Source of the DNA: a virus
Taxonomy: Duplodnaviria; Heunggongvirae; Uroviricota; Caudoviricetes
IMG/VR virus record: IMGVR_UViG_2645727539_000008
Location: 1-26,592 of that record
Strand: one strand, 5' to 3'
DNA length: 26,592 nt
In this document: piece by piece, positions 9,404-26,592 of the stretch
Numbering within the stretch: the first letter of the stretch is position 1
How the letters are laid out: the number at the start of each line of letters is the position of its first letter
The notes under the pieces: model-generated
Database searches by the model: none
Seen by the model: the letters and a program-made list of their open reading frames with translations, nothing else
Told to the model about the DNA's origin: nothing
Translations under genes and position numbers: made by a program

Positions 9404-11133
9404 AGAATTAAGAGATCATCGTCCGGATCAAGAGATGAGAGGAAATCGTCAGGTTCTTTGAGCATTGCCCGACCGATCGTCATAATCAGTGCAACCGCAC
9501 CATCGATTTTGTTTTCCGCCTGCTCCTTGACGGGCTTCACTAAATCATCGTTACCAGGCATGTTTTTGCCGACCACATTGCCGATACACCAGGTCATGAT
9601 GGGATTGCCGTCATGATGAAAGCGTCCCGATTCAATCGCTGCTTCCAGCTCTTTCATCGGATCGGACATATTGGCGAAGTTCTGTACGATAGTGACGGGA
9701 TTCAGATCTTCATCAGCAAGGTCATGTGACAGCCCGGTCGCCCCGAAGGGGTCGATGGGTGACTCACTGACCGGGCTGATTTTGTTCGCCGCTTTGGCCT
9801 CTTCGAGGATGTAGCGATAATCCACCTCTGCACCATCGGTAACGGTCAGGACGCCCATTTCCACCCATTTCTGAAAGCGTTCGGCTGTCCGTCTATCTTC
9901 ATTTTTCTCGACGCTGTACACCGTGTCATACGGTACCCAGAAGCGCGGGGCCACACTGTAGTAATGCGTTTTACCGTCAATCTCGCGGGTATAAAGTCGC
10001 GCCATGCTGTTCATATCCAGCTTACGCGCCAGGTCAAAGGCCAGAATGCACGGCTGCCCCTCGAACTGCTCAAGGGTCAGTGATTTATCCTCGCAGCTCT
10101 GCCAGCTCACCAGGTTGAAATACGCCGAACGTGCCGACACCCAGATATTGAGGTGTTTTGTTTTAAAGACGTTTGCCAGACGGGCGTTATTTTTCGCACG
10201 CTGCTGCTGACTTAACAAAAATTCGCGATAAACCGACACGCCAATATTTGGATTGGCTTTTTCCAGCACCTGCGGGTCGGTCCAGTCGTCACCTTCATCA
10301 ACGGTATAGATGATCCCGAGCAGTTCATCGTTAGGCACCGAGCCGTTGAGCATCTCGATGACTTCCCGCCGCTTGTCGTAGCACGGCCCCTCAATGTTGT
10401 ACCCGGCGGTGGTGATGGCCCACATCAGTGGCTGACGTCGCGCCCCCATCCCGGTAAGCATTGTGGTATAAAGCGCATCGGTGGCATGCTCGTGATATTC
10501 ATCAACCACGGCACAGTGGGGTGATGAACCATCACCGGGGTTGCCGATCAGCGGTTCAAACCGCGCGCCATCCTCCGGACGGTTCATGTTTGAGGCGTTA
10601 ACCTCAATCCCGAACGCTTCCGTCAGCATGGGTGTGCGTTTACACATCAGTCGCGCCGGGCGAAAGACTTCCCACGCCTGTTTCTCTGTCGTGGCACCGG
10701 AATACACTTCCGCGCCAAACTCGTTATCACAGGCAAAACAATACAGGGCAACACCGGCAGAGATTGCTGATTTGCCGTTCTTACGGGGGATTTCGGTATA
10801 CACCTCCCGGAAGCGGCGCAACCGGGTGCCTTTATTGACCCAGCCAAACGCACAGCAGATCACAAATAGCTGCCACGGCTCCAGCGTGATGGGCATCCGT
10901 TTGAATGCCCACTCACCCTTGGTGTGCGGCAACAGCTGAATAAATTTCGCGGCCCGTTCAGCCAGGTCCTTGTCGAAGCGGTAACGAAACGACTTACTTT
11001 TTTCCGCCATCAGGTCATCAAGATGGCGCTGGCAGGCCTGAATCACAAACTGGCAGGCCACAATCTTTCCGCGCACGACATCACGGGCATACTGATTGGC
11101 AGCATTTACGTTGGGGTAAGATTTCCGGCTCAT
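9400..11133 (-). CDS. Terminase large subunit
   Basis: 577 aa; N-terminal ATPase region (GKS Walker A-like, VVDEYHE Walker B-like) and C-terminal nuclease region; follows the small subunit gene. Confidence 0.9.
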
Positions 11134-11633
11134 GATTCGATAATTTTCAGAAACGGGTTAGTGGCTTTCTTCTGCCCCGCCAGGCCAATCAGACGCTGGC
11201 GGCTGCTGGGGTCGAGTCCGAGCATTGCCCCCGTGCTGCTCATCTCGGACTCCTGTTCTTTTTTGGCGGTCAGCTCCGGATTTTTGACCCTGCCGCCCAT
11301 TGCACCGGTGATGGTGTTGCCCTGTATGGCAATATTTTTCACGGCACGTCGCCAGAACTCATAGGCCACGCACCACCGCTCAAGCACTGCGAGGTCAGTC
11401 ACGCACAGCAGGCCCTGACCGCAGAGTTCTTTGGTTGTCAGTTGCCACATGATCGTGGCGAGAGGGAGATCTTCTTCAGCGAACCACTCTGGTGGCTCAA
11501 CACCTTTGATGGGCGTAAAAACAGGTTCATCTTTGTTCAGGGCTCGCTTGCCGGGGTTTCCGGCCAGCGCCTTGCGCGCCGTTGGCTTGGGGCGACGCCC
11601 GGAACGCCCCGCCGTTCCAGCCATATGCGGCAC
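11130..11633 (-). CDS. Terminase small subunit (P27-like)
   Basis: 167 aa, basic N-terminus, immediately upstream of and overlapping the large terminase; preceded by an HNH gene as in HK97-type packaging modules. Confidence 0.75.
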
Positions 11634-12192: not shown

Positions 12193-12513
12193 CTAAATCA
12201 GATCACCAATGTATTTTGCACTAATTGAAATTTGCATCTGAGGCATTCCGACCACAGATCCATTTAACAGGTAATCACGTCCTCGTTCCTGCAAAGAAAG
12301 ACTCAATTCAAAGTTCTTTACCCCAGGGAAAACCGAGGTGGCATTTAAATCATGCTGCGATACGCGCAGAATAAGTTGGCTACCGTCAACTTTTCCCTGA
12401 TACGTAAAACCAAAATCTCCGCCGTTTACTGCATTGTTTTTGACAACTACGGTACCATTACCAAAATCACGCTGATTGCTTCTGAAAACAACAAAATAGA
12501 TACCATCTTTCAT
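12193..12513 (-). CDS. Hypothetical protein (moron between lysis and packaging genes)
   Basis: 106 aa, AT-rich coding region, own SD-like sequence and own downstream terminator; no signal peptide or recognisable motif. Confidence 0.55.
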   Translation of the reverse strand: MKDGIYFVVFRSNQRDFGNGTVVVKNNAVNGGDFGFTYQGKVDGSQLILRVSQHDLNATSVFPGVKNFELSLSLQERGRDYLLNGSVVGMPQMQISISAKYIGDLI

Positions 12514-12875: not shown

Positions 12876-13152
12876 CCGCAACAGCCACTTTGATATCTTT
12901 CTGGGTTCTCTGTGACTCCAGTGCGATCTGCTGTTTTGCATGTTGATTCGCCTCCTGAATGATGTTCGTTATTGCCATAGTACGCAGAACATTCGCGGTG
13001 ATAGCCTCAGTAGAATCAGCTCGCTGTTCCGCAGCATCAGCACGCTTCTGCTCCTCCAGAAACTTTCCATGATAGTGATTCGCTGACCAGACAAGACCAC
13101 CAGCGACACAAGCAATAAACGTTAAAATGAGCGCCCAATAACTCATCTTCAT
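12760..13152 (-). CDS. i-spanin (Rz-like)
   Basis: 130 aa, N-terminal TM helix then charged coiled-coil periplasmic domain; directly downstream of the endolysin gene. Confidence 0.8.
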   Translation of the reverse strand: MKMSYWALILTFIACVAGGLVWSANHYHGKFLEEQKRADAAEQRADSTEAITANVLRTMAITNIIQEANQHAKQQIALESQRTQKDIKVAVADDDCASRPVPAAAADRLRKYANSLRPGSGSSVTSQPDG

Positions 13153-13763
13153 ACCAGCAGCGCCGCCCGCGCCTTGTTGTATCGGACCTTACGATCCTCA
13201 ATACCGTTCAAACCGCCGTTAATGATGCGCGTAACACGGTTAATATCGGCACCGTAGATCATGCAACCTTTAGAGGTGTAGAACCATGCAGCTGAGCGCG
13301 CAGCCTGTAGTTCCTGTTCCAGTTGTTCAGGTGAAGTCACCAGATCTAACTTCAGCGCCGCGCCACAGATGCGATAATTATGGAGGCCAGTGATTTGAAT
13401 TAATCCTCTACCGCGATATTTCCAGCCATCACCGGGTGCTTTGTTACCCAGCCGGTTGCTATACACCAGATTGGCAATAGCATCCTGGCGAGCTGCATGT
13501 CCGGATGTTCTGCCAAGGGCATCAGCCTGCTGCTGTGTGATCCTCTTTCCGAACGTCGCCACCAGCGCAGATGGCGTGTAGTTAAAATTTTCAACTACGG
13601 CGCTAAACCCCATCGACTCATGGCCTACCTGAGCGATAAACATTGCCTGATCCGCTGGTGCTGTAATGCCGAATTCCTTCATCGCCGCATCAATGTGCGG
13701 AAACCAGCGCGCAGCCAGCCCGGCGCTAATACCAGCCGCCTTTTGAAATAATTGTTGGTTCAT
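13149..13763 (-). CDS. Endolysin, glycoside hydrolase family 19 (chitinase-like lysozyme)
   Basis: 204 aa with GH19 signature motifs FIAQVGHESMGF and YRGRGLIQITGLHNY; sits between holin and spanin genes. Confidence 0.9.
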   Translation of the reverse strand: MNQQLFQKAAGISAGLAARWFPHIDAAMKEFGITAPADQAMFIAQVGHESMGFSAVVENFNYTPSALVATFGKRITQQQADALGRTSGHAARQDAIANLVYSNRLGNKAPGDGWKYRGRGLIQITGLHNYRICGAALKLDLVTSPEQLEQELQAARSAAWFYTSKGCMIYGADINRVTRIINGGLNGIEDRKVRYNKARAALLV

Positions 13764-14044
13764 TAGTGCCTCAGATGATCAACCAGACGTGCAACGTTGC
13801 CTCTGACAGCCACCAGCACGGAAAGAAAAATAGTGTTCGCCACGATAATGGGCCATGAGGAATGGGGATAAATCCCACAGAGATAGGCCAACGGAACAGC
13901 ACTGTATGTAACAGTAATCAGCCAGGCTAAACGTGAAACCCAAGGACGATGCCGCGAATCACCACGACGATAAAACATCAGAGTAATAACAACACAAGCA
14001 CATAACAGCGCATTTATAGTTGCTGTCGGGTCATTTAGCTCCAC
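13763..14044 (-). CDS. Holin
   Basis: 93 aa with three predicted TM segments and a charged C-terminus; immediately upstream of the endolysin. Confidence 0.7.
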   Translation of the reverse strand: MELNDPTATINALLCACVVITLMFYRRGDSRHRPWVSRLAWLITVTYSAVPLAYLCGIYPHSSWPIIVANTIFLSVLVAVRGNVARLVDHLRH

Positions 14045-14417
14045 CTGAACCTCCCCGGCGCGTTATGAGCGCCACCAGCGAGCCGATATCCTGATTATTC
14101 AGGAACGTCAGGATTTTAACGGCTAAAGCAGAGACGATTACGGCACCAATAGCATCCAGAGGTTTATCACTGTATCCGGTCAAGTTCGCCAGCTTGGAGC
14201 CAACCAACCCAGAGCAAAGAATCCCGGCAATATATGACACGATAAAATATGCCAGTCGGCGCGATGCACTCAGATCTGCAGCTGTTGCTATGTAGAATAC
14301 AGCCCCTGCAAATGCGCCAAATACAACGCCGTAATCAGTTCCGGTCAGCAGTCCATAAACACTGGCACCCGTCAGGGCACCACCAGCCAGCCCAGTACCG
14401 GAAATCGGATCGGACAT
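14031..14417 (-). CDS. Holin-like membrane protein (second holin or antiholin)
   Basis: 128 aa, Gly/Ala-rich with 3-4 TM segments; strong SD (AGAGGGGG) before its ATG; first gene of the lysis cassette. Confidence 0.65.
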   Translation of the reverse strand: MSDPISGTGLAGGALTGASVYGLLTGTDYGVVFGAFAGAVFYIATAADLSASRRLAYFIVSYIAGILCSGLVGSKLANLTGYSDKPLDAIGAVIVSALAVKILTFLNNQDIGSLVALITRRGGSGGAK

Positions 14418-14460
14418 TTAGCCCCCTCTTAATTGCTGTTGGTCCTCTCAGAACGAGGGG

Positions 14461-14489
14461 AAACAAAAAAGGCCGCATTAAGGCGGCCT
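14461..14489 (-). terminator. Rho-independent terminator downstream of the Q-proximal moron
   Basis: Stem AGGCCGC / GCGGCCT with a short loop, followed on the minus strand by UUUUUU. Confidence 0.65.
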
Positions 14490-14507
14490 TGGTGAGGTAT
14501 AGTTTTT

Positions 14508-15104
14508 TTAAGATAAACTTTGATTGATATACTCATGACACCCAAAAATAAAGGCGTTTTGTGCATCAATAAATGACTTTTTTTCTTCCGGAGTAAAATA
14601 CCCTTTTGTAAAACATACTTTTAGCGCTTTTTGAAGATCTGCCGTCAGGGTTATCAACTTACAACCTTCCTCATCAGGCCTTATTAATAGAAGTAATTTA
14701 TTTTTACTTATTTCAGCGGCCTTTATTGGAACTTGAATCTCCTCAGGGAAAACACCCTTAGCCAATATATCCATATTCTTATTTCCGACCAGATGCCATT
14801 GCTCAAATGTGCTGGCCAACATAATTACGTCTGTCACATGCTCAGCGCCAGCAAAACGTATTTGTTGCGCCAATTCTTTATTAGTATTCAAGTGAGCCTG
14901 TAATGTGGCTAAGGCAAAATTTTCTTTGATTGCCCTGTATGCAACCCAACCAGTTATTCCTGCGGCAATAACGCCTGCAAGAGCAGTAATGAGTGTTTCA
15001 AAAGGAAAGGAAGAACTGATTTCAATTGGCGGTAATTTTTCTATTACCAAGGTCAACTCGCCAGTAGTTTTTTCGAAAGCGTACGGTACGTTTTGCCAAG
15101 TCAT
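14508..15104 (-). CDS. Hypothetical membrane-anchored protein (moron between Q and lysis genes)
   Basis: 198 aa, one TM segment (ITALAGVIAAGITGWVAY), AT-rich codon usage unlike neighbours, strong SD AGGAGG, bracketed by terminators. Confidence 0.65.
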   Translation of the reverse strand: MTWQNVPYAFEKTTGELTLVIEKLPPIEISSSFPFETLITALAGVIAAGITGWVAYRAIKENFALATLQAHLNTNKELAQQIRFAGAEHVTDVIMLASTFEQWHLVGNKNMDILAKGVFPEEIQVPIKAAEISKNKLLLLIRPDEEGCKLITLTADLQKALKVCFTKGYFTPEEKKSFIDAQNAFIFGCHEYINQSLS

Positions 15105-15135
15105 GAAGCCTCCTGAGTTTCAGAGGAATCATAAC

Positions 15136-15159
15136 AAAAAAACCCGCTCAATGGCGGGC
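15136..15159 (-). terminator. tR'-like terminator just downstream of the Q gene
   Basis: 6-bp stem GCCCGC / GCGGGU followed by U7 on the minus strand, about 50 nt after the Q stop; the position matches lambda tR'. Confidence 0.55.
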
Positions 15160-15210
15160 TCTTAATGTTGTGTTGCTCAGTTCGCTTTAACGTCCCGAGC
15201 CTACCACAAT

Positions 15211-15789
15211 TTAAGCACTTTCTTGCTCACTCTGCAACTTAAATCTGTCGCTATTTGTGCCGAATGCGTCACAAACTGGAGCGTACAGGATCGATTCTGC
15301 AAGACTTAGCCAAGTGTCAATGCGTCGACGACAGGTGATCAGCGGCCAGTCAGGATGTTTAGCCTGCAGTTCATTGGCCATCTGCAACTTGCTCTTACGA
15401 AGACGATACCGGTCAACAATCACGCTATAGAGCGATCGGTAGTCATCATTCATCAGTACTGAAGCAATGACACCGTCCACTAACAACCCTTCTTCATCTG
15501 AACAGAACGCCAGGCCGCTTTTATTTTTGCTGTTGAGAATTTCACGCAGGTACGCTTCAAGTTCAGGCTTGGTGATACCCGCTATCTTCATCCGGCGTAG
15601 CGCTTCATTGATAGCTGTCTTGGTGATTTTCCCGGATGCCAGAAGCTGGTTAAACATGTTTCCACCACTACCACCGCCGATATAAGACCAGCGGCCCCAC
15701 ATGCGCAACTTGCCTTGTATCCAGATACTTTCCAGAGTACGAAGGCGAACCATTTCACCTGATTTGCCAACTTCAGAAGGATTAATCAT
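15211..15789 (-). CDS. Late-gene antitermination protein Q-like
   Basis: 192 aa; position between nin-region genes and the lysis cassette, followed by a tR'-like terminator; motif RMWGRW recalled from Q-family antiterminators. Confidence 0.7.
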   Translation of the reverse strand: MINPSEVGKSGEMVRLRTLESIWIQGKLRMWGRWSYIGGGSGGNMFNQLLASGKITKTAINEALRRMKIAGITKPELEAYLREILNSKNKSGLAFCSDEEGLLVDGVIASVLMNDDYRSLYSVIVDRYRLRKSKLQMANELQAKHPDWPLITCRRRIDTWLSLAESILYAPVCDAFGTNSDRFKLQSEQESA

Positions 15790-17617: not shown

Positions 17618-18007
17618 TCAGGCGGCTGCACCCGCCGTTTTCTCGTACTTACTGATAGTGATCTCGATCTTCCCTCCCGGGATAACCGGTCCCCACTCAA
17701 CCAGCATTCTTTTCACCTGACTGTCGTCTTCCCACACACCCGCGTGGGTCAGGGCGTCAAACAGCGCCTTGTTATAGTTGTCCAGATCGCGGATCCGGTT
17801 ATCCGGAGGAAACAACACGATCTCCACTGAAGCAGGTGCCGACGTTGGTTTCGGCAGGCGACGTAACTGCTCAACTATTGCTGCGCACGCCGCGCTCTGG
17901 AATTTGCGCCCCGCTGCGCTTATCAGACTCTTACCAGCAAACGCCCCTTTGTTGGGGTGTCGCCAGTACGTGTTCACGCTGGGCGGGAAAGGCAAGATCA
18001 GCTTCAT
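17618..18007 (-). CDS. rusA: Holliday junction resolvase RusA
   Basis: 129 aa, N-terminus MKLILPFPPSVNTYWR and conserved acidic residues typical of RusA; in nin region. Confidence 0.9.
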   Translation of the reverse strand: MKLILPFPPSVNTYWRHPNKGAFAGKSLISAAGRKFQSAACAAIVEQLRRLPKPTSAPASVEIVLFPPDNRIRDLDNYNKALFDALTHAGVWEDDSQVKRMLVEWGPVIPGGKIEITISKYEKTAGAAA

Positions 18008-18980: not shown

Positions 18981-19474
18981 TAAGCCCCCACGTAATTCCC
19001 TGACAGATACCACTCTTCACCCGATGCAGCGCGCTTGCTGCTTTTCCGTAAGCACCGCTCACGATGCGCCAGAAAATTGTTTCGTTCTGGCTGGGAGTGG
19101 CTTTCACGGAATGCCGCCATCCACACCGTTGCAGCTCGACGGAATAAGCCCCTGGACTCCAGTTCTTCAGCCTGGCGGGTCAGGCACAAAATCACCCGGG
19201 GGTCGTTAGTGCCGACATAGAAATTGCGCACAGGTCTGGTTTCACGAACAGATTGTGGTTCCGGCTCCTGCGCTCTCTCAGTCAGGCGCGGGAAATGTCT
19301 GCGTGTATCTCCTTCACAACGGTGAGCCACACGCCCACTCTGACGTAACTTGCTTGCTGACTGCAGAACGCGCTGCCGTGAGTAACCAGCAAAAGCATCC
19401 GCAATGTCTCCGGAAGTACACCCAGGATGGGCTTCAATGAATTTCTGAACGTCATTTAACAGACTCATGATCAC
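18980..19474 (-). CDS. Hypothetical regulator, possible PerC-like C-terminal motif
   Basis: 164 aa; segment LESRGLFRRAATVWMAAF resembles the PerC/Pch family motif as recalled from memory; occupies the slot where a helicase loader is normally found. Confidence 0.4.
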   Translation of the reverse strand: MIMSLLNDVQKFIEAHPGCTSGDIADAFAGYSRQRVLQSASKLRQSGRVAHRCEGDTRRHFPRLTERAQEPEPQSVRETRPVRNFYVGTNDPRVILCLTRQAEELESRGLFRRAATVWMAAFRESHSQPERNNFLAHRERCLRKSSKRAASGEEWYLSGNYVGA

Positions 19475-20463
19475 CCCCTGAATCCTGCCGGGATCTGGCT
19501 GTAGTCCACGTTGTCGTAACTGGATTTGAAGTACGGGTCTTCGCGTTTTTCGGTGTACGTGCTGACGGACGGCGATAAGCGCAGGGAAAGCTCATCCCAT
19601 TTTTCCCGCAGCTTCGACGGGCTGAGCACGTTACGGCACCAGAACGGATCGCGACTGACGCGGCTGTACATCTCGCAGATTTGTTTATGATTACGACCAT
19701 CCTGCACACACATCAGGCGAATTTCGTTTGCCCAGGCTGTCCAGTTCGGTTCTTTGGGACGAACCACCTCGCCGTCACATTCGGCGGCCTGCTCGTACAG
19801 GGCGATGATTTTTTTCCAGAGCCACTGTGCGCAGGTCAAATCATCCTGCGTTCCCCACTGGCGCTTTTTAGGGCTGAATACAACCGCATCAGGATGGCGA
19901 GTTAAAAAATCCTGTTCAGCCACCTGCGTGTCCGGTTGCGAAGCGTCCGGACGAGAAGAGGTTTTATTCTCTGTAGTAATCTCTGTTGTATTCTCTGTAA
20001 GATCATTGGGCCATTTTGACCCGATGACAGCGTGTCGTTTTGAACCAATGGATCGTGTCATTTTGCGCCCATCCATCAGGTCACTTTGACCCGATGGAGA
20101 AGTGCATTTTGACCTGATGGATTCGTTCACTTTGACCTCTTCTAAAAGCTCACTTTCATAGTTGATCGTGTAGAAATTGGTCATGTCACGCTTCGATTTA
20201 TTGAGTTGCTCGCGACGCAAAACCCCAAGTGATTTCAGGCTTGCAAATGTGCGTTTCAGAGTGGACTCTGACCAGAACGGAAACTGCTCCAGCCACTGTT
20301 CTGTCGTGTTATAAACCCAGCGAATTCCGCCATGCTCAGTGCCTGAATTCGTTTCATTCAGCCAGTAATGAAGCTGCTGCAACACAATTGCCTCATTCAG
20401 ACCAATACGGCATGCAAGATCACGATTTATCACAATGGGCTGGGATGTCATTAACAGGCTCAT
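19471..20463 (-). CDS. Replication initiator (lambda O-like replisome organiser)
   Basis: 330 aa; first replication-module gene after cro/cII-like genes; contains in-gene iterons producing repeated SIRSK/SIGSK/VIGSK peptides in a linker; SD AGAGGT before ATG. Confidence 0.8.
   Translation of the reverse strand: MSLLMTSQPIVINRDLACRIGLNEAIVLQQLHYWLNETNSGTEHGGIRWVYNTTEQWLEQFPFWSESTLKRTFASLKSLGVLRREQLNKSKRDMTNFYTINYESELLEEVKVNESIRSKCTSPSGQSDLMDGRKMTRSIGSKRHAVIGSKWPNDLTENTTEITTENKTSSRPDASQPDTQVAEQDFLTRHPDAVVFSPKKRQWGTQDDLTCAQWLWKKIIALYEQAAECDGEVVRPKEPNWTAWANEIRLMCVQDGRNHKQICEMYSRVSRDPFWCRNVLSPSKLREKWDELSLRLSPSVSTYTEKREDPYFKSSYDNVDYSQIPAGFRG
19966..20139. repeat. Putative origin of replication: six ~23-bp iterons plus three 12-bp repeats inside the initiator gene
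   Basis: Direct repeats of consensus GTCAYTTTGACCCGATGGA starting near 20009, 20034, 20057, 20080, 20102 and 20125; TCTCTGT repeated at 19968, 19980 and 19992. Confidence 0.7.
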
Positions 20464-20472
20464 GACCGACCT

Positions 20473-20811
20473 CTATTTCCCTGAATTTACGACGAAACTG
20501 TTCGAGCGGGCTGAAGCACTCATGCTCATAGCCTTCACGGAGGTAGATAACCCGTTGTGTTTCCGGTTCCCAACGAATGACTCTGACGGGCACTCCGTAG
20601 TGATCTTTGAACCAGCGGTTAACTTGTCGCAAAGGACTGTCTCCTTCTGCCGGTTGAAATCACCCACAGCCCACTCAGCAAAGCTGTGGGTTACAATTTC
20701 CCTGTCACCTGGTACATTTACTGCATAGCAATACTCCACCTTCGCTTTTCCACCCGGTACAGGAAGTGCAATCAGTTGCGAGCGACGGTAGTGTGTTGTT
20801 AAACTGTTCAT
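20473..20811 (-). CDS. Hypothetical protein (between CII-like gene and replication initiator)
   Basis: 112-aa ORF coupled by ATGA overlap to the upstream gene; C-terminal half is Ser-rich and overlaps a more protein-like 70-aa ORF (20420..20632) in another frame. Confidence 0.4.
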
Positions 20812-21365
20812 GCGTTAGTTTCTCCACAACCAGAAGCAATCGACGCCACGACGCCCGGAGCTGCACACTCGCGGGCGTCATTACTTTCTGAAATGCAAAA
20901 AATTTTGTAGACAAGTGCTGCATGCTCCTGCAGCTTCGAAATTGAGAGATACAGCTCGTCGTTGATTGCTGTCTTCTCATGCGGTTCCACCACACCGTCT
21001 TCGATTGCCGAACGAATCTGTTTGGAATAACTGCCAATCTGTTCAATGACTTCCAGCAGGCGCTGGTTAATATCGGCGTTGTCCACATCCTCGACGTCAG
21101 GAAGAGACACAAAGACGCCATTTGCCGACTGCGCCACAGCGTCAGCAATGAAGTGAGTTCCACCAGCACGTTGCAAAATCATTGCCCATCCCAGCGGGAA
21201 AATCTGATCGCCATCGGCACGAAGGCGGTTAAATAATGCGTTCTCTGTTACATCCAGCCAGTCAGCTGCTTCAGCGTAACCACCCGGCAACTTTGCGATA
21301 GTTTTTCTGACAGCTTTCACGTACCACTCAGGCTGTTTTTCTACTTTCCAGTGATGCTTACCCAC
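20808..21365 (-). CDS. Putative CII-like early regulatory protein
   Basis: 185 aa, first gene after cro in the rightward operon, overlaps the cro stop; HTH-like N-terminal segment; assignment by position. Confidence 0.5.
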
Positions 21366-21618
21366 GGCTTACCTCCTGTTCCTGTGGTTTAAACCCATTC
21401 TGGTTTTGGCTAGATTGAAAACGTGCCGGATAAAGAATCTGCATTTCGCTGATTTCACCCTTAAAAAAATTGGCCAGACGCTCTGCAAGATCGATAGATG
21501 GAATTTGTTCCAGTCTCTCAATACGACTCAGCGTTGCTGGATTAACCTGAACGCCCGCAGCAACATGCTGCAAAGTAAACCCGTGCGCCTTACGCACATT
21601 TCGTAATGGTGATTGCAT
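21358..21618 (-). CDS. Cro-like repressor (XRE-family HTH)
   Basis: 86 aa with HTH GFTLQHVAAGVQVNPATLSRIER; divergent from cI across the operator region; SD GGAGG. Confidence 0.8.
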   Translation of the reverse strand: MQSPLRNVRKAHGFTLQHVAAGVQVNPATLSRIERLEQIPSIDLAERLANFFKGEISEMQILYPARFQSSQNQNGFKPQEQEVSRG

Positions 21619-21632
21619 ATAACCTCCACATA

Positions 21633-21695
21633 TTGCGTGATGAGCATATTATTTCACGCAAATATTTTGCGCAAGTTGATTTGCTTAACGCGCAA
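21633..21695. promoter_or_regulatory. OR operator / divergent promoter region between cro and cI
   Basis: Palindrome TTGCGTGA-N13-TCACGCAA (21633-21661), TTGCGCAA (21667-21674) and 15-bp TTGCTTAACGCGCAA (21681-21695); same TTGC-N7-GCAA family as the OL sites. Confidence 0.65.
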
Positions 21696-21715
21696 TAAAG
21701 AAATGTAATAAACGC

Positions 21716-22408
21716 ATGAACATAGGAAACCGAGTCAGACAACTTCGCCAGGCGAAGAACATGAAAATCGCCGATCTCGCTGAAGCAATAGGAGTGGATG
21801 CGGCGAATATCTCGCGCCTGGAAACAGGTAAGCAGAAACAATTCACTGAACAAGCCCTGAGTAATATTGCCAGGAGCTTAGGTGTTGATATTGCTGATCT
21901 CTTTACCTCAGACGTCAAAAGTAATACTGTATGTAAAAACAGTATTAGTGAGGATGTTGCGCAGGTGAAGGATGTATTCCGTATTGAAATGCTGGATGTC
22001 AGTGCCAGTGCGGGAAATGGCCTTATCCAGGGCGGTGATGTCATTGATGTGATTCATGCCATTGAATACAGAACTGATAATGCTGTATCGATGTTTGGCG
22101 GACGACCAGCCAATCACATTAAAGTTATCAACGTTCGTGGGGACAGTATGTGTCCAACCATTGAGCCAGGAGATCTCATCTTCGTTGATGTCAGTATCAA
22201 TCAGTTTGATGGAGATGGTATCTATGTATTTGGTTTTGATGATAAAATTTATGTCAAACGACTGCAAATGATACCTGACAAACTACTGGTGATATCTGAT
22301 AACCAGATTTACCGTGAATGGGGAATTACCAGCGAAAATGAACACCGGTTTATGGTCTTTGGAAAGGTCTTAATCAGCCAGTCACAAACCCTTAAACGAC
22401 ACAATTAA
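21716..22408 (+). CDS. CI-type prophage repressor (N-terminal HTH, C-terminal S24 LexA-like autopeptidase)
   Basis: 230 aa; HTH KIADLAEAIGVDAANISRLETG; Ala-Gly site in SASAGNG; Ser nucleophile in RGDSMCPT and Lys in VKRL. Confidence 0.9.
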   Translation: MNIGNRVRQLRQAKNMKIADLAEAIGVDAANISRLETGKQKQFTEQALSNIARSLGVDIADLFTSDVKSNTVCKNSISEDVAQVKDVFRIEMLDVSASAGNGLIQGGDVIDVIHAIEYRTDNAVSMFGGRPANHIKVINVRGDSMCPTIEPGDLIFVDVSINQFDGDGIYVFGFDDKIYVKRLQMIPDKLLVISDNQIYREWGITSENEHRFMVFGKVLISQSQTLKRHN

Positions 22409-22428
22409 CCCTTACTTCCTCATCAATT

Positions 22429-22450
22429 AGCCACCCGAAGGTGGCTTTTC
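22429..22450 (+). terminator. Rho-independent terminator after cI
   Basis: Stem AGCCACC / GGTGGCT with loop CGAA, followed by TTTT, 20 nt after the cI stop. Confidence 0.7.
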
Positions 22451-22463
22451 ATTACCCATCAAA

Positions 22464-22502
22464 TTGCATATCTCGCAATAAAAACACTTGCATAATGCGC
22501 AA
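22464..22502. promoter_or_regulatory. OL operators and putative PL promoter
   Basis: Two 15-bp TTGC-N7-GCAA sites, TTGCATATCTCGCAA (22464-22478) and TTGCATAATGCGCAA (22488-22502); possible -35 TTGCAT and -10 TATCTT directing plus-strand transcription. Confidence 0.6.
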
Positions 22503-22947
22503 CTTCATTTTATCTTTCTTTCCAGACCAACAAACAAGGTACTAACAAAATTTGGTTGTAACACGGCGTATGGCACATGCGTCGTTAGCGGTCTGGGGAC
22601 GTTAAAGGGGACAATCCACTCCTTGCTCGGGCAAACAAACCAGGTAGCCGGAATGTGCAAGTCAATGATGATGCTGATAAGACGCCTAACCAGCGTGGCG
22701 ATTCGGTTTGACGCCTGGGAAGAGACCAGGGTGCAACGATGAGGGCATTTATGGAACCGCCACAAAGTGTGGTGCCGTAACTGGCTAAGTGCTCTCAGCG
22801 TTGTGGTGAATGCGCAGGCTGATGCGCGAAAGACATTGCAGCTATTGCGGAAAAGAGCTGTTCGGCGGGGCAATTAAACGCCCGTGAGAGTCTGAAATAA
22901 CCGCAAGCCGGAGATCAGCACCGGTCACCACAACAGCCACTGCTTTG

Positions 22948-22994
22948 GCGGTACCAGTTTGTACACTTGCTTCCGGCTGGTACCGCTCTTTTTA
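22948..22994 (+). terminator. Strong intrinsic terminator in the early-left leader
   Basis: Perfect 10-bp stem GCGGTACCAG / CTGGTACCGC with a 19-nt loop, followed by TCTTTTT. Confidence 0.7.
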
Positions 22995-23130
22995 CAAAAC
23001 AGAGAAGAGCATCACCGGACGACGGGCTCATAACCCAATCCACCCGGGCGGCTGCCACCGCAGGTGTTCTTCTCTGTTTTGTGGAGAAACCAACCGACCT
23101 TGCAGGGTCGATATGATGAGGAGCAGCAAA

Positions 23131-23493
23131 ATGGCTAGCGAACGCAGTACTGATGTGCAGGCATTTATCGGGGAGCTGGACGGCGGCGTATTTGAAACCA
23201 AAATCGGCGCAGTTCTCAGTGAAGTCGCTTCCGGTGTGATGAACACGAAAACCAAAGGTAAGGTCTCGCTCAACCTGGAAATCGAACCGTTTGATGAGAA
23301 CCGTGTGAAAATCAAACACAAACTCTCATATGTTCGCCCGACTAACCGCGGGAAAATTTCCGAAGAAGACACCACCGAAACGCCGATGTATGTCAATCGC
23401 GGTGGTCGCCTGACTATTCTGCAGGAAGACCAGGGACAATTACTGACTCTTGCCGGTGAACCTGACGGAAAACTCCGCGCAGCAGGTCATTAA
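23131..23493 (+). CDS. Hypothetical early-left protein (YfdP-like by position)
   Basis: 120 aa starting at the ATG preceded by GAGGAG; first protein gene of the PL operon; no recognised motif. Confidence 0.55.
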   Translation: MASERSTDVQAFIGELDGGVFETKIGAVLSEVASGVMNTKTKGKVSLNLEIEPFDENRVKIKHKLSYVRPTNRGKISEEDTTETPMYVNRGGRLTILQEDQGQLLTLAGEPDGKLRAAGH

Positions 23494-23558
23494 TATCGTT
23501 CTTAATTAACTGATTATTTATCTCATCACTGAATATCTTTATATAGTGAGGACTTATT

Positions 23559-24383
23559 ATGTCTCAGAACTTAGACGCAACCGCAATTAATCAAATCCAT
23601 GCCCTTATTTCTGCTCAGGGTGTTAATGAAATTATCAGTAAGATTGGTGCCGACGCAGTGGCATTACCTGAAAATTTCCGCATTCATGATCTGGAAAAAT
23701 TTAATTTAAATCGCTTCCGTTTCCGTGGTGCGCTTTCCACTGCCAGCATCGATGACTTTACCCGTTATTCTAAAGATCTTGCAGATGAAGGCACCCGCTG
23801 CTTTATCGATGCCGATAATATGCGAGCCGTCAGTGTGCTTAACCTGGGTACTATTGATGAACCAGGTCACGCAGATAACACCGCCACTCTCAAACTGAAA
23901 AAGACAGCACCGTTCTCTGCCCTGTTGTCTGTTAACGGCGAGCGTAACTCCCAGAAGTCACTGGCAGAATGGATTGAAGACTGGGCCGACTACCTTGTGG
24001 GCTTTGATGCTAATGGTGACACCATTCAGGCAACAAAAGCGGCTGCGGCAGTCCGTAAAATAACGATTGAAGCAAACCAGACCGCTGATTTTGAAGATAA
24101 TGACTTCAGCGGCAAACGCTCCCTGATGGAATCTGTCGAAGCGAAGACCAAAGACATTATGCCAGTGGCATTTGAATTTAAATGCGTTCCGTTTGAAGGC
24201 CTGAAAGAACGTCCGTTTAAATTACGCCTCAGCATTATCACTGGCGATCGTCCTGTACTGGTTCTGCGCATTATTCAGCTGGAAGCAGTGCAGGAAGAAA
24301 TGGCTAACGAATTTCGTGATCTGCTTGTTGAGAAATTCAAAGACAGCAAAGTAGAAACCTTTATTGGTACTTTTACCGCCTGA
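23559..24383 (+). CDS. YfdQ-like protein (DUF2303-type)
   Basis: 274 aa; length and order match the CPS-53/KplE1 yfdP-yfdQ-yfdR-yfdS-yfdT block as recalled; identity not verifiable here. Confidence 0.6.
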
Positions 24384-24510
24384 TTTCCTTACTGCAAATG
24401 CCCCTGCGGGGGCATTTATGGAAACATAATTGACTCAATAATCGCCTGATGGCGAGGGTTTTCTTTAACCAAAATTCTGCGCGGTGCAGCGCATATACGT
24501 GGAGAACAAA

Positions 24511-25047
24511 ATGTCATTTATTAAAACTTTTTCCGGGAAGCATTTTTATTATGACAAGATAAATAAAGACGACATCGTGATTAACGATATCGCGGTTTCC
24601 CTTTCAAATATCTGTCGCTTTGCAGGACATCTTTCACACTTCTACAGTGTCGCCCAGCATGCAGTGCTTTGCAGCCAACTGGTGCCGCAGGAATTTGCTT
24701 TTGAAGCGTTAATGCATGATGCAACAGAAACGTATTGCCAGGACATCCCCGCACCACTGAAACGACTTCTTCCTGACTATAAACGGATGGAAGAAAAAAT
24801 AGACGCCGTAATCCGTGAGAAATACGGGTTACCTCCTGTTATGAGCACGCCAGTGAAATATGCCGATCTCATTATGCTGGCAACCGAACGCCGCGATCTC
24901 GGACTTGATGATGGCTCTTTCTGGCCTGTATTGGAAGGTATCCCGGCAACAGAGATGTTCAAAGTTATTCCACTGTCTCCAGGTCATGCCTACGGGATGT
25001 TTATGGAACGTTTTAACGAGTTATCGGAGTTACGCAAATGCGCATGA
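24511..25047 (+). CDS. HD-domain phosphohydrolase (YfdR-like 5'-deoxynucleotidase)
   Basis: 178 aa from the ATG after GGAGAA; HD-type metal ligands (H..H, HD) in FAGHLSH...QHAVL...LMHDATETY. Confidence 0.7.
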   Translation: MSFIKTFSGKHFYYDKINKDDIVINDIAVSLSNICRFAGHLSHFYSVAQHAVLCSQLVPQEFAFEALMHDATETYCQDIPAPLKRLLPDYKRMEEKIDAVIREKYGLPPVMSTPVKYADLIMLATERRDLGLDDGSFWPVLEGIPATEMFKVIPLSPGHAYGMFMERFNELSELRKCA

Positions 25048-25400
25048 ATGTTTTCGAAATGGAAGGGTTTCTTCGCGGGAAATGTGTACCGCGAGATCTG
25101 AAAGTGAACGAAACAAATGCTGAGTACCTAGTACGTAAATTCGACGCGCTTGAAGCTAAATGTGCGGCACTGGAAAACAAAATAATACCAGTGTCAGCTG
25201 AATTGCCACCTGCAAATGAAAGTGTTCTGTTATTTGATGCTAACGGAGAAGGCTGGCTGATTGGCTGGCGTTCTCTCTGGTACACCTGGGGACAAAAGGA
25301 AACCGGAGAATGGCAGTGGACATTTCAGGTCGGGGATCTTGAAAACGTCAATATCACTCACTGGGCAGTAATACCAAAGGCACCGGAGGCAGGGGCATAA
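25038..25400 (+). CDS. YfdS-like hypothetical protein
   Basis: 120 aa, Trp-rich C-terminus, overlaps neighbours; same length and position as yfdS. Confidence 0.55.
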   Translation: MRMNVFEMEGFLRGKCVPRDLKVNETNAEYLVRKFDALEAKCAALENKIIPVSAELPPANESVLLFDANGEGWLIGWRSLWYTWGQKETGEWQWTFQVGDLENVNITHWAVIPKAPEAGA

Positions 25401-26020
25401 TGACCACATTTACCGACAAAGAACTGATTAAAGAAATCAAAGAGCGCATAGGCAGTCTGGATGTGCGAGACAATATTGAGCGCCGTGCTTATGAAATTGC
25501 TTTGGTATCGCTGGAAGCAGAACCGGTGGCATGGCTGCATTCAGACAATGGCTTAGGTATTCCGGCAATAACACGGAGTAAAAACATTGCTGACAGTTGG
25601 TTATCAAAGGGCTGGTATGTTCAGCCGCTATATATAGCCAAGCCAGTGCCGGTGGTGCCAGATGCTCGTCCGTCTTTAAATAATGGCATAGTCGGCTTTG
25701 ATGAAGGCTGGAACGCCTGCCGCGCCGCCATGCTTAATGGTGCCGAACCTGTAAGCCAGACTTACAAGTTGAACGAGCTGTCGGGCAACTCTCCGGTAAC
25801 TCCGGATGGTTGGATAAGCTGTAGTGAGCGAATGCCGAACGATAAACAGTATGTTTGGTGTTGGGGGAAGTTTTACGGCTGGGCTGAGTGCGATACCTTC
25901 GAAGGGTATTACGATTGGTCGAAAAACAAATGGTGGGCAGTTACTGACGATGTGGAAGAATCGGCATCGAAAGTAACCCACTGGATGCCGCTACAGGAAC
26001 CGCCGCATGAGGTGAAGTAA
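25400..26020 (+). CDS. DUF551-type protein (YfdT-like, extended)
   Basis: 206 aa; C-terminal Trp/Cys-rich segment WISCSERMPNDKQYVWCWGKFYGWAECD typical of DUF551 phage proteins. Confidence 0.6.
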   Translation: MTTFTDKELIKEIKERIGSLDVRDNIERRAYEIALVSLEAEPVAWLHSDNGLGIPAITRSKNIADSWLSKGWYVQPLYIAKPVPVVPDARPSLNNGIVGFDEGWNACRAAMLNGAEPVSQTYKLNELSGNSPVTPDGWISCSERMPNDKQYVWCWGKFYGWAECDTFEGYYDWSKNKWWAVTDDVEESASKVTHWMPLQEPPHEVK

Positions 26021-26214
26021 TGAACAACTTAATGACAACTAAACAAGTCGCCGACTTCTGTGGCGTTTCAATATCAACAGTGCTTCGCTGGAACAGCATA
26101 AACCATAGGACAGGTAAGAAATATAGACCAGACTTTCCTGATCCTGATATAAAATCCTGTCCCAATAAATGGGCTTCACACAAGATTTATAGATTTGCAG
26201 GTATTATCGAGTAA
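26020..26214 (+). CDS. Excisionase-like DNA-binding protein (recombination directionality factor)
   Basis: 64 aa with HTH TTKQVADFCGVSISTVLRW; last gene of the early-left operon, next to an AT-rich structured region. Confidence 0.6.
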   Translation: MNNLMTTKQVADFCGVSISTVLRWNSINHRTGKKYRPDFPDPDIKSCPNKWASHKIYRFAGIIE

Positions 26215-26499
26215 CGTTTATTAGTTTCGATGTTAGCCAACACATCTATGGCACAATGTCAAACCCAATCTTACTTCCTGCGCTGTACTAGAACGGCCAG
26301 CCCTGACTTCATAAATTATTAACCAACTGGGAACAAGTTAGCTAGTTGGTGATGGGTGTCAGTTGTCGAAAGTCCCCCCCCACCATCACCACTAGCTGAG
26401 ACTCTTCAGTGTTACAATTGCTTTAAATGGTTGCCAAAGTACTGAAATCGAGTCTAATAGTAAAGTTTATATCTCACAAACAGTATATAGGGACAGAGA

Positions 26500-26592
26500 A
26501 TGAAACATTTAAATGATTTCCCCAAAAGAGATAGAAATCACAGAATTGAAAGACTTGCAATATCAGCTTTTGAACATTTCCTTAGTGATTCG
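26500..26592 (+). CDS. Partial ORF of unknown function (runs off window end)
   Basis: ATG at 26500 after GGGACAGAGA; 31 codons MKHLNDFPKRDRNHRIERLAISAFEHFLSDS in a low-GC region; not integrase-like. Confidence 0.3.
   Translation, partial: MKHLNDFPKRDRNHRIERLAISAFEHFLSDS

Follow-up and report, generated by a model that had tools for sequence, protein, structure and literature searches.

Which role do the yfd genes fulfil in the early-left operon of a temperate phage, the place in which phage lambda encodes its recombination genes? The question is raised by a stretch of DNA of 26,592 nucleotides (IMG/VR record IMGVR_UViG_2645727539_000008), in the following called the window, which as a whole is an SfV-like temperate prophage and carries, downstream of a CI-like repressor gene, six tightly packed genes on the plus strand, namely yfdP, yfdQ, yfdR, yfdS, a fifth gene with a YfdT-like start and an excisionase gene (xis). 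An initial annotation had regarded the first five as a yfdP-Q-R-S-T accessory block present instead of recombination genes, with host takeover or anti-defence as candidate functions. The block does not, however, functionally replace the recombination genes that are missing. The reading we favour, tentatively and with slightly less than even confidence, is that an operon that starts at a repressor-controlled promoter close behind cI and ends in xis constitutes an early host-takeover set, assembled as a mosaic of three cassettes, in a phage that delegates recombination to its host.

With the CPS-53 (KplE1) proteins of Escherichia coli K-12 MG1655 as the BLASTP reference, four full-length orthologues are recovered, with identities of 99.2% (YfdP), 98.9% (YfdQ), 97.8% (YfdR) and 99.2% (YfdS), so the similarity to the Yfd proteins on which the initial annotation depended exists. 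Lengths, order and intergenic spacing of the four genes are the same in CPS-53, and DNA identity amounts to 96.5% over window positions 23112–25524 (approximately 2.4 kb). All open reading frames (ORFs) are present in the ORF list with the positions and lengths given to them, a 187-amino acid version of the yfdR ORF beginning at a GTG at position 24484. Four of the five assignments are correct. In the fifth protein, similarity to YfdT is confined to residues 1–42 (88%, BLASTP), and residues 137–202 match a DUF551 domain (E 2.2e-15, 57.7 bits against a Pfam cutoff of 22) that K-12 YfdT does not possess. YfdS itself scores just below the cutoff for this family (PF04448; 20.7 bits, cutoff 22). 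The excisionase proposed to follow the block is there in kind, as a member of phrog_1553, a family separate from that of the CPS-53 excisionase TorI, to which the 64-amino acid protein gave no BLASTP match.

No convincing gene is located in the 722 bp between the repressor gene and yfdP. Thereafter the genes follow closely, with overlaps of 10 nt between yfdR and yfdS and of 1 nt each between yfdS and the fifth gene and between the fifth gene and xis, an arrangement typical of one translationally coupled operon. As the cro-like and CII-like genes diverge from the repressor gene, the six genes occupy the position of a lambdoid early-left operon. Downstream of the terminator-like hairpin at the end of the repressor transcript, two operator-like palindromes of the pattern TTGC-N7-GCAA are found, a pattern that occurs six times in the window with 1.06 occurrences expected and of which a third copy in the immunity region is located between cro and cI (21681–21695). 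The palindromes at 22464–22502 are putative left operators, and the leftward promoter (PL) would be located there. Further downstream, the 127-nt spacer between yfdQ and yfdR, which has the same length in K-12, contains a terminator-like hairpin (24442–24455, TCGCC-TGAT-GGCGA then GGGTTTTCTT) that might set different expression of the YfdP-YfdQ pair and the downstream genes.

The initial statement that exo/bet/gam-type genes are missing from the early-left region is upheld: in Pfam and PHROG scans of all ORFs from cI to xis no annealing protein, exonuclease, single-stranded DNA-binding protein (SSB) or RecBCD inhibitor was found, and the block proteins show no sequence or fold similarity to the annealing proteins or nucleases of Red, RecET, Erf, Sak or Rad52-like modules. 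A RusA-type Holliday-junction resolvase is the only recombination-related gene found in the window. In agreement with this, the window is enriched in Chi sites (GCTGGTGG), with 14 copies against 1.21 expected and a maximum of five across 100 shuffles. Twelve of the 14 are located on the minus strand, which also encodes the late genes and in which Chi is the most frequent octamer (12 copies, the runner-up having seven); no Chi is present in the early-left region at 21716–26592. Lambdoid phages without a Rec module have been reported to be enriched in correctly oriented Chi and to be helped by RecBCD (Genome Research 2025, PMC12315714). The window phage matches this ‘no Rec module, high Chi’ class, as judged within the window only, and appears, from the distribution of the sites, to rely on host RecBCD via Chi.

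As a functional claim, on the other hand, ‘instead of recombination genes’ does not hold, since in other phages the YfdP-YfdQ pair adjoins complete recombination modules. The early-left operons of LLS, ST64B and phiNP have been described as carrying homologues of yfdR, yfdQ and yfdP; these genes, however, also occur outside the ‘no Rec module, high Chi’ class and are not found in every member, and a role as recombinases in disguise is unlikely, given that phage ArgO145 possesses them together with a complete Rec module (PMC12315714). When checked, ST64B contained P-Q-R and five Chi on one strand in 10.8 kb, and an ArgO145-like Stx2a phage with a Rec module zero Chi in 16.8 kb. More distant contexts were inspected in 15 loci, hand-picked and not systematic, from SfV, mEp460, ST64B, Eeyore, the Stx2a phage, Pseudomonas phage pAN, Xanthomonas phage MET23-P3, six Vibrio phages, an Acinetobacter phage and one IMG/VR contig. 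A YfdP homologue is encoded directly upstream of YfdQ in 15 of 15 (hidden Markov model E 1e-67 to 6e-10), YfdR is found within 2.1 kb of the pair in five (SfV, mEp460, ST64B, Eeyore and pAN), and YfdS, by sequence, in two (SfV and mEp460). GamL, RecT, Exo and SSB are encoded directly upstream of P-Q in the Stx2a phage, Erf and an exonuclease upstream in Vibrio phage 1.183.O, and a recombinase, an exonuclease and SSB downstream in MET23-P3; SSB follows two genes downstream in VvAW1, a Rad52-type gene lies at 3 kb distance in Vibrio phage 1.232.O, and the order in the Acinetobacter phage is DUF2800, DUF2815, P, Q, PolA and then further genes including VRR-NUC and helicase genes. In other phages the YfdP-YfdQ pair usually lies within clusters of genes for replication or recombination; it travels with recombination genes and does not replace them.

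Among close relatives the genes are likewise modular. In a sample of 80 IMG/VR loci, all with a YfdQ identical to that of the window, yfdP, yfdQ and yfdR are present in all 80 and the 185-bp leader 5′ of yfdP in 78, yfdS is found in 51, the N-terminal part of the fifth gene in 36 and its C-terminal part in five, and the xis of the window type in 11. Scans with three distant seed proteins yielded one locus or none. The operon is composed of three independently distributed cassettes, the YfdP-YfdQ core, YfdR as a frequent passenger, and variable DUF551 genes (YfdS and the YfdT::DUF551 chimera), and is better described in these terms than as a five-gene block. A part, at least, of the 3.7-kb region has a match in 3999 of the 5426 complete E. 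coli genomes, and in 377 the match covers at least 80%, the yfd genes being among the commonest E. coli prophage genes.

The K-12 orthologues are the only source of direct functional data. K-12 YfdR binds DnaA domain I at Phe46 in moderate competition with DiaA and DnaB and is a weak phosphatase of deoxynucleoside monophosphates (dNMPs), its only reported substrates, for which the affinity is low; multicopy yfdQ and yfdR together with yfdS or yfdT block initiation at oriC, with YfdP being dispensable (PMC4776307). This literature, comprising 5′-deoxynucleotidase activity, DnaA binding and an initiation block upon overexpression, was represented accurately in the initial annotation, which was equally right in calling the 178-amino acid protein an HD-domain phosphohydrolase. 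The H...HD...D motif of the window protein (VAQH, LMHDATE and KYAD) aligns with that of the uncharacterized HD protein Atu1052 (PDB 2gz4, E 2e-13), its best alignment partner. While RefSeq labels YfdR homologues as yfdR, 5′-deoxynucleotidase, the protein scores below the cutoffs of YfbR-type families (Pfam PF12917, 24.0 versus 25.9 bits; NCBIfam NF003009, 20.5 versus 122 bits), and YfbR structures were not retrieved with YfdR by phmmer, even at E 10. DnaA binding and dNMP phosphatase activity are reported for the 97.8% identical K-12 protein only and would be expected by homology in the window protein.

On this ground the following course of events can be proposed. After induction, the block would shut down initiation on the host chromosome and perhaps also trim the dNMP pool; host DnaB and DnaC could thereby become available to a phage that brings no more than an O-type initiator of its own. 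Neither a helicase loader of the P/DnaC type nor a helicase was found among the genes of the early-right operon. Recombination would be left to host RecBCD and RecA, through Chi on the packaging-relevant strand, and to the RusA of the phage itself. Several observations argue for a host-takeover set of this kind: the 97.8–99.2% orthology to K-12, the overlapping genes from yfdR to xis and the palindromes after the cI terminator, the published work on YfdQRST and DnaA, the O-like initiator unaccompanied by a helicase loader, the lack of Rec hits, the Chi enrichment and the modularity. The takeover proposed in the initial annotation thus agrees with the published initiation block via DnaA, which stems from overexpression only (PMC4776307). 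Other points weigh against it. Deletion of yfdQRST is without replication phenotype, the authors allow for an overexpression artefact with genes from a cryptic prophage, and no strong binding of YfdQ, YfdS or YfdT to either YfdR or DnaA was seen (PMC4776307). Furthermore, no phage-infection experiment on these genes was found in the literature searched, that DnaB would be redirected to the phage origin is a step that we infer, and the primary role of the pair cannot depend on YfdR, because YfdR is absent in ten of the 15 distant loci.

The last point directs attention to the pair itself. YfdQ covers positions 2–269 of the 269 positions of the DUF2303 profile (Pfam PF10065; 309.5 bits, cutoff 26.6), and its family comprises 1817 clusters at 50% identity; among the 150 best matches from 1.84 billion representative proteins, nearly all were 264–288 amino acids long and none carried an informative domain fusion. 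Residues R52, R56, H104, Q132, E140, D141, R166, R223 and R237 are near-invariant in 62 diverse members. A PD-(D/E)XK nuclease, an idea derived from the conserved H104, E140 and D141, was considered and found no structural support. The protein is acidic (isoelectric point 4.9, with a range of 4.9–5.5 over four homologues), which argues against direct DNA binding. PDB entry 9o7m, ‘YfdQ Protein’, holds 36 chains of a 274-amino acid protein that matches the window YfdQ at E 1.5e-44 and is 98.8% identical in sequence to Xanthomonas phage MET23-P3; with 36 chains, YfdQ probably forms a large assembly. No paper on 9o7m was found in the literature searched, and the entry is absent from the Foldseek PDB copy running to April 2026. 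For YfdP no PDB entry was found. Its model (predicted local distance difference test score, pLDDT, 71) comprises one long helix followed by a three-stranded sheet and gave no fold match, and a strongly conserved C-terminal motif, TPMYVNRGGKLTILQEDQGQL, for which disorder is predicted, represents a candidate docking peptide. Neither YfdP nor YfdQ matches a characterized fold.

A few database proteins (P0011, P0069 and P0160; 166–284 amino acids) combine the YfdP family PF27127, which is newer than the Pfam copy in which YfdP gave no match, with the YfdQ family PF10065 on a single polypeptide; they may result from a frameshift or a gene-calling error, or else represent rare genuine fusions of the partners. 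A 134-amino acid ORF on the minus strand (22915–23319), antisense to the start of yfdP, matches phrog_3651 (E 5e-86), and as conservation of YfdP extends to phages of Vibrio and Xanthomonas, this antisense family is probably a propagated artefact of annotation.

The main rival explanation is one that we consider unlikely. YfdP-YfdQ, with or without YfdR, might be an unrecognized accessory of phage recombination, repair or replication that acts on DNA ends, gaps or SSB-coated DNA, the operon of the window then representing the remnant of a recombination region from which the annealing protein and nuclease have been lost. The neighbours of P-Q (RecT, Exo, Erf, recombinase, exonuclease, SSB, PolA, VRR-NUC and helicase) fit such a role, as do the probable large assembly suggested by the 36 YfdQ chains and the sensitivity of a K-12 yfdQ deletion mutant to H2O2 and methyl methanesulfonate (MMS), as cited in PMC4776307. 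The co-occurrence of the pair with complete four-function Rec modules speaks against it, and because of this co-occurrence the pair is not itself a recombinase, as has also been argued before (PMC12315714); moreover, YfdQ is acidic, no fold relationship is apparent, and the Chi enrichment points to dependence on the host pathway.

Less probable still is counter-defence, in which YfdR would degrade signalling nucleotides or reshape the pool of dNMPs and deoxynucleoside triphosphates (dNTPs), and YfdP-YfdQ would act as a sponge or mimic. Location in an early operon, an HD enzyme with an intact metal-binding motif and an acidic, probably oligomeric YfdQ are compatible with this role. YfdR homologues, by tblastn similarity, also occur in 332 phage records from many hosts, 28 of them Escherichia by organism name. 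As a precedent, the unrelated phage T5 deoxynucleoside 5′-monophosphatase Dmp remodels the dNTP pool, and mutations that escape the Clover dNTPase map to Dmp; the activity of Dmp, however, is sensed by the defence and provokes rather than blocks it (PMC12265719). None of the five proteins could be connected with a known counter-defence family, the reported substrates of YfdR are the low-affinity dNMPs alone (PMC4776307), and the pair and YfdR are usually unlinked. PADLOC gave no match for the block proteins, which says nothing on counter-defence because its library holds defence and not counter-defence proteins. The anti-defence or signalling-nucleotide role of the initial annotation therefore finds no support in these results.

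That the genes chiefly serve the lysogen, through tolerance of oxidative or alkylation stress, and not lytic growth is highly improbable: such a benefit would explain why the genes were kept in the decayed CPS-53 at 96.5% DNA identity, and part of the 3.7-kb query in 3999 of the complete E. coli genomes, stress phenotypes of yfdQ and yfdS deletions as cited in PMC4776307 and the plaque formation by a co-resident phage that YfdQ overproduction provokes (bioRxiv 10.1101/413146) are in line with it, but the block, located downstream of the putative PL and translationally linked to xis, points to expression on induction, and the pair also occurs in phages that lack an obvious lysogeny module (Xanthomonas CP2-like and Vibrio).

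Host takeover after induction remains the reading that we favour, and what is left of interest are the function of the YfdP-YfdQ pair and the conserved structured leader in front of it. The long hairpin of the leader is formed by a 25-nt inverted repeat of 84% complementarity (arms at 22994–23018 and 23058–23082), and a second hairpin (23093–23112) is located just 5′ of the ribosome-binding site. In ST64B the long hairpin is kept with one compensatory change from G:C to A:U and the second hairpin with unrelated sequence. The leader is better conserved than the coding sequence after it, being nearly the same in ST64B-type phages, in which YfdQ is approximately 58% identical, and is absent where yfdP directly follows an SSB gene, as in the Stx2a phage. 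Rfam gave no match in the leader or in the whole window, and no second copy, as in a put-like pair, was found in the early-right operon or elsewhere in the window. CPS-53 has lost this leader, K-12 homology beginning at window position 23112.

The approximately 540 bp from the putative PL to the leader (22409–22945) contain no ORF with a PHROG match and are 98.6–99% identical in mEp460 and PhiR63_1. For mEp460, an antisense ORF of 122 amino acids with a non-coding appearance is annotated at window positions 22505–22873 (minus strand). Folding of the 621-nt leader as a whole is more stable than that of shuffled controls (z -3.8, with 20 shuffles only), and ST64B has approximately 800 unannotated bases at the same position.

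It is conceivable, if doubtful, that YfdP and YfdQ constitute a two-protein machine with a large homo-oligomer and a new fold, a widespread and as yet unnamed accessory of the replication and recombination modules of phages across Gammaproteobacteria that acts directly on the host replisome or on initiation, with the leader as its cis-regulatory RNA, for example for processing or antitermination in a phage without N protein. The features discussed so far are compiled in Table 1.

Table 1. Positions of the yfd operon, its control elements and related features in the window.
Feature	Position	Strand	Evidence or remark
yfdP, 120 amino acids, partner of YfdQ	23131-23493	+	
yfdQ, 274 amino acids, DUF2303	23559-24383	+	
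yfdR, 178 amino acids from ATG, HD-domain phosphohydrolase	24511-25047	+	97.8% to K-12 YfdR; phrog_318 E 2.6e-109
yfdS, 120 amino acids, DUF551-like	25038-25400	+	99.2% to K-12 YfdS; phrog_583 E 5.1e-82
Mosaic gene, 206 amino acids, YfdT-like N-terminus and C-terminal DUF551	25400-26020	+	BLASTP, Pfam
Excisionase, 64 amino acids, last operon gene	26020-26214	+	phrog_1553 E 2.6e-34
Structured leader, 185 nt	22946-23130	+	kept in 78/80 IMG/VR loci, and in SfV
Operator-like palindromes TTGC-N7-GCAA	22464-22478, 22488-22502	+	pattern scan
Intrinsic-terminator-like hairpin ending the repressor transcript	22429-22446	+	7-bp stem, 5 GC pairs, then TTTTC
CI-like repressor, helix-turn-helix (HTH) and S24 peptidase	21716-22408	+	Pfam Peptidase_S24 E 6.4e-19, HTH families; phrog_4, phrog_6201
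cro-like gene	21358-21618	-	Pfam and PHROG scans
CII-like gene	20808-21365	-	Pfam and PHROG scans
O-like (DnaD-like) replication initiator	19471-20463	-	phrog_391 E 3.5e-101
RusA-type Holliday-junction resolvase	17618-18007	-	phrog_34 E 1.4e-58
Chi (GCTGGTGG) cluster, five sites	13097-14387	-	lysis region beside packaging (cos) end

In the remainder of the window, the early-right operon encodes Cro, CII, the O-like initiator, a PerC-like activator, a Dam-type methylase, a small LexA-family protein, RusA, a KilA-N protein, a DUF968/HNH protein and Q. Positions 14001–15500, which separate Q from the lysis genes, are low in GC (0.42–0.45 versus approximately 0.52 elsewhere), a location in which lambdoid phages carry cargo genes such as stx; this stretch contains a 198-amino acid ORF on the minus strand (14508–15104) that matches phrog_18859 only and no Pfam family. 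Between the lysis and the HNH/terminase genes, a 106-amino acid minus-strand ORF (12193–12513) matches the GrlR family of negative regulators of type III secretion, barely over the Pfam cutoff (27.5 versus 26.8 bits), and may be a moron gene. At the right end, the gene after xis (26501–26592) is cut by the end of the window, the full gene being found in L001 at 9602–11542. In the 97% identical strain EC13 it encodes, between xis and the integrase gene, a protein of 646 amino acids with an N-terminal DUF4365, presumably a restriction-endonuclease-like domain, followed by tetratricopeptide (TPR) repeats. With weak PADLOC matches to the candidate system PDC-M02A, this gene looks like a prophage-borne defence candidate, and the right end that carries it is common to only seven complete E. 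coli genomes.

How much of this is new? The observation behind the initial annotation is correct, but the genes have been known and annotated for two decades, and the setting without recombination genes was published in 2025. As stated, the finding adds little, since the block, its carriage by SfV, where it has been present since the 2002 annotation, and the no-Rec arrangement were all described previously. Solving the role of the YfdP-YfdQ pair, on the other hand, would provide an annotation for two genes that a large proportion of enterobacterial prophages carry, and could explain the takeover of host replication by phages with a minimal O-type module.

Comparison with known systems places the window between well-described relatives. 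The cryptic CPS-53 preserves the block in a decayed setting, whereas the window copy is located in an apparently complete prophage with repressor, PL region and leader. SfV (GenBank U82619 / NC_003444), a serotype-converting phage of Shigella flexneri, matches the initial 25 kb of the window with 74% coverage and 96.9% identity and is organized as cI, terminator, orf33, terminator, orf32 to orf28, xis and int, in which orf32 corresponds to YfdP, orf31 to YfdQ (99.6% identical to that of the window), orf30 to YfdR and orf29 to YfdS, while orf28 is YfdT-like. The immunity regions differ, with no DNA match over window positions 21394–22945 and homology resuming at 22946; SfV has orf33 where the window has an unannotated stretch, its fifth gene is of the YfdT type and its xis differs. 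In mEp460 the order of the yfd genes is the same as in the window. A yfd block in a functional phage is thus not new, as SfV ORFs 29–31 had already been noted as YfdQRST homologues (PMC4776307). Phages of the LLS functional type (LLS, ST64B and phiNP) resemble the window in having yfdP/Q/R in the early-left operon, no annealing protein, nuclease, SSB or RecBCD inhibitor, and Chi as the commonest octamer, strand-biased and denser toward the lysis/cos end. The window phage differs from them by SfV-type late genes for a contractile tail and by a YfdQ only approximately 58% identical to that of ST64B.

At the level of single proteins, T5 Dmp and YfdR are both early phage phosphohydrolases that act on dNMPs, and PHROG family 318, which YfdR matches, bears the product name of Dmp. 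No T5-like record is present among the 45 listed of the 332 YfdR-similar phage records, which are spread over the ranking, so that any relationship between the two would be remote, and DnaA binding is known for YfdR but not for Dmp. The closest functional parallel was drawn by the authors of the YfdR work themselves (PMC4776307): like YfdR, lambda P is an early phage protein reported to bind DnaA and to inhibit initiation at oriC. Lambda P, however, addresses domain III of DnaA and is also a helicase loader, while YfdR, an HD protein with no known loader function, addresses domain I.

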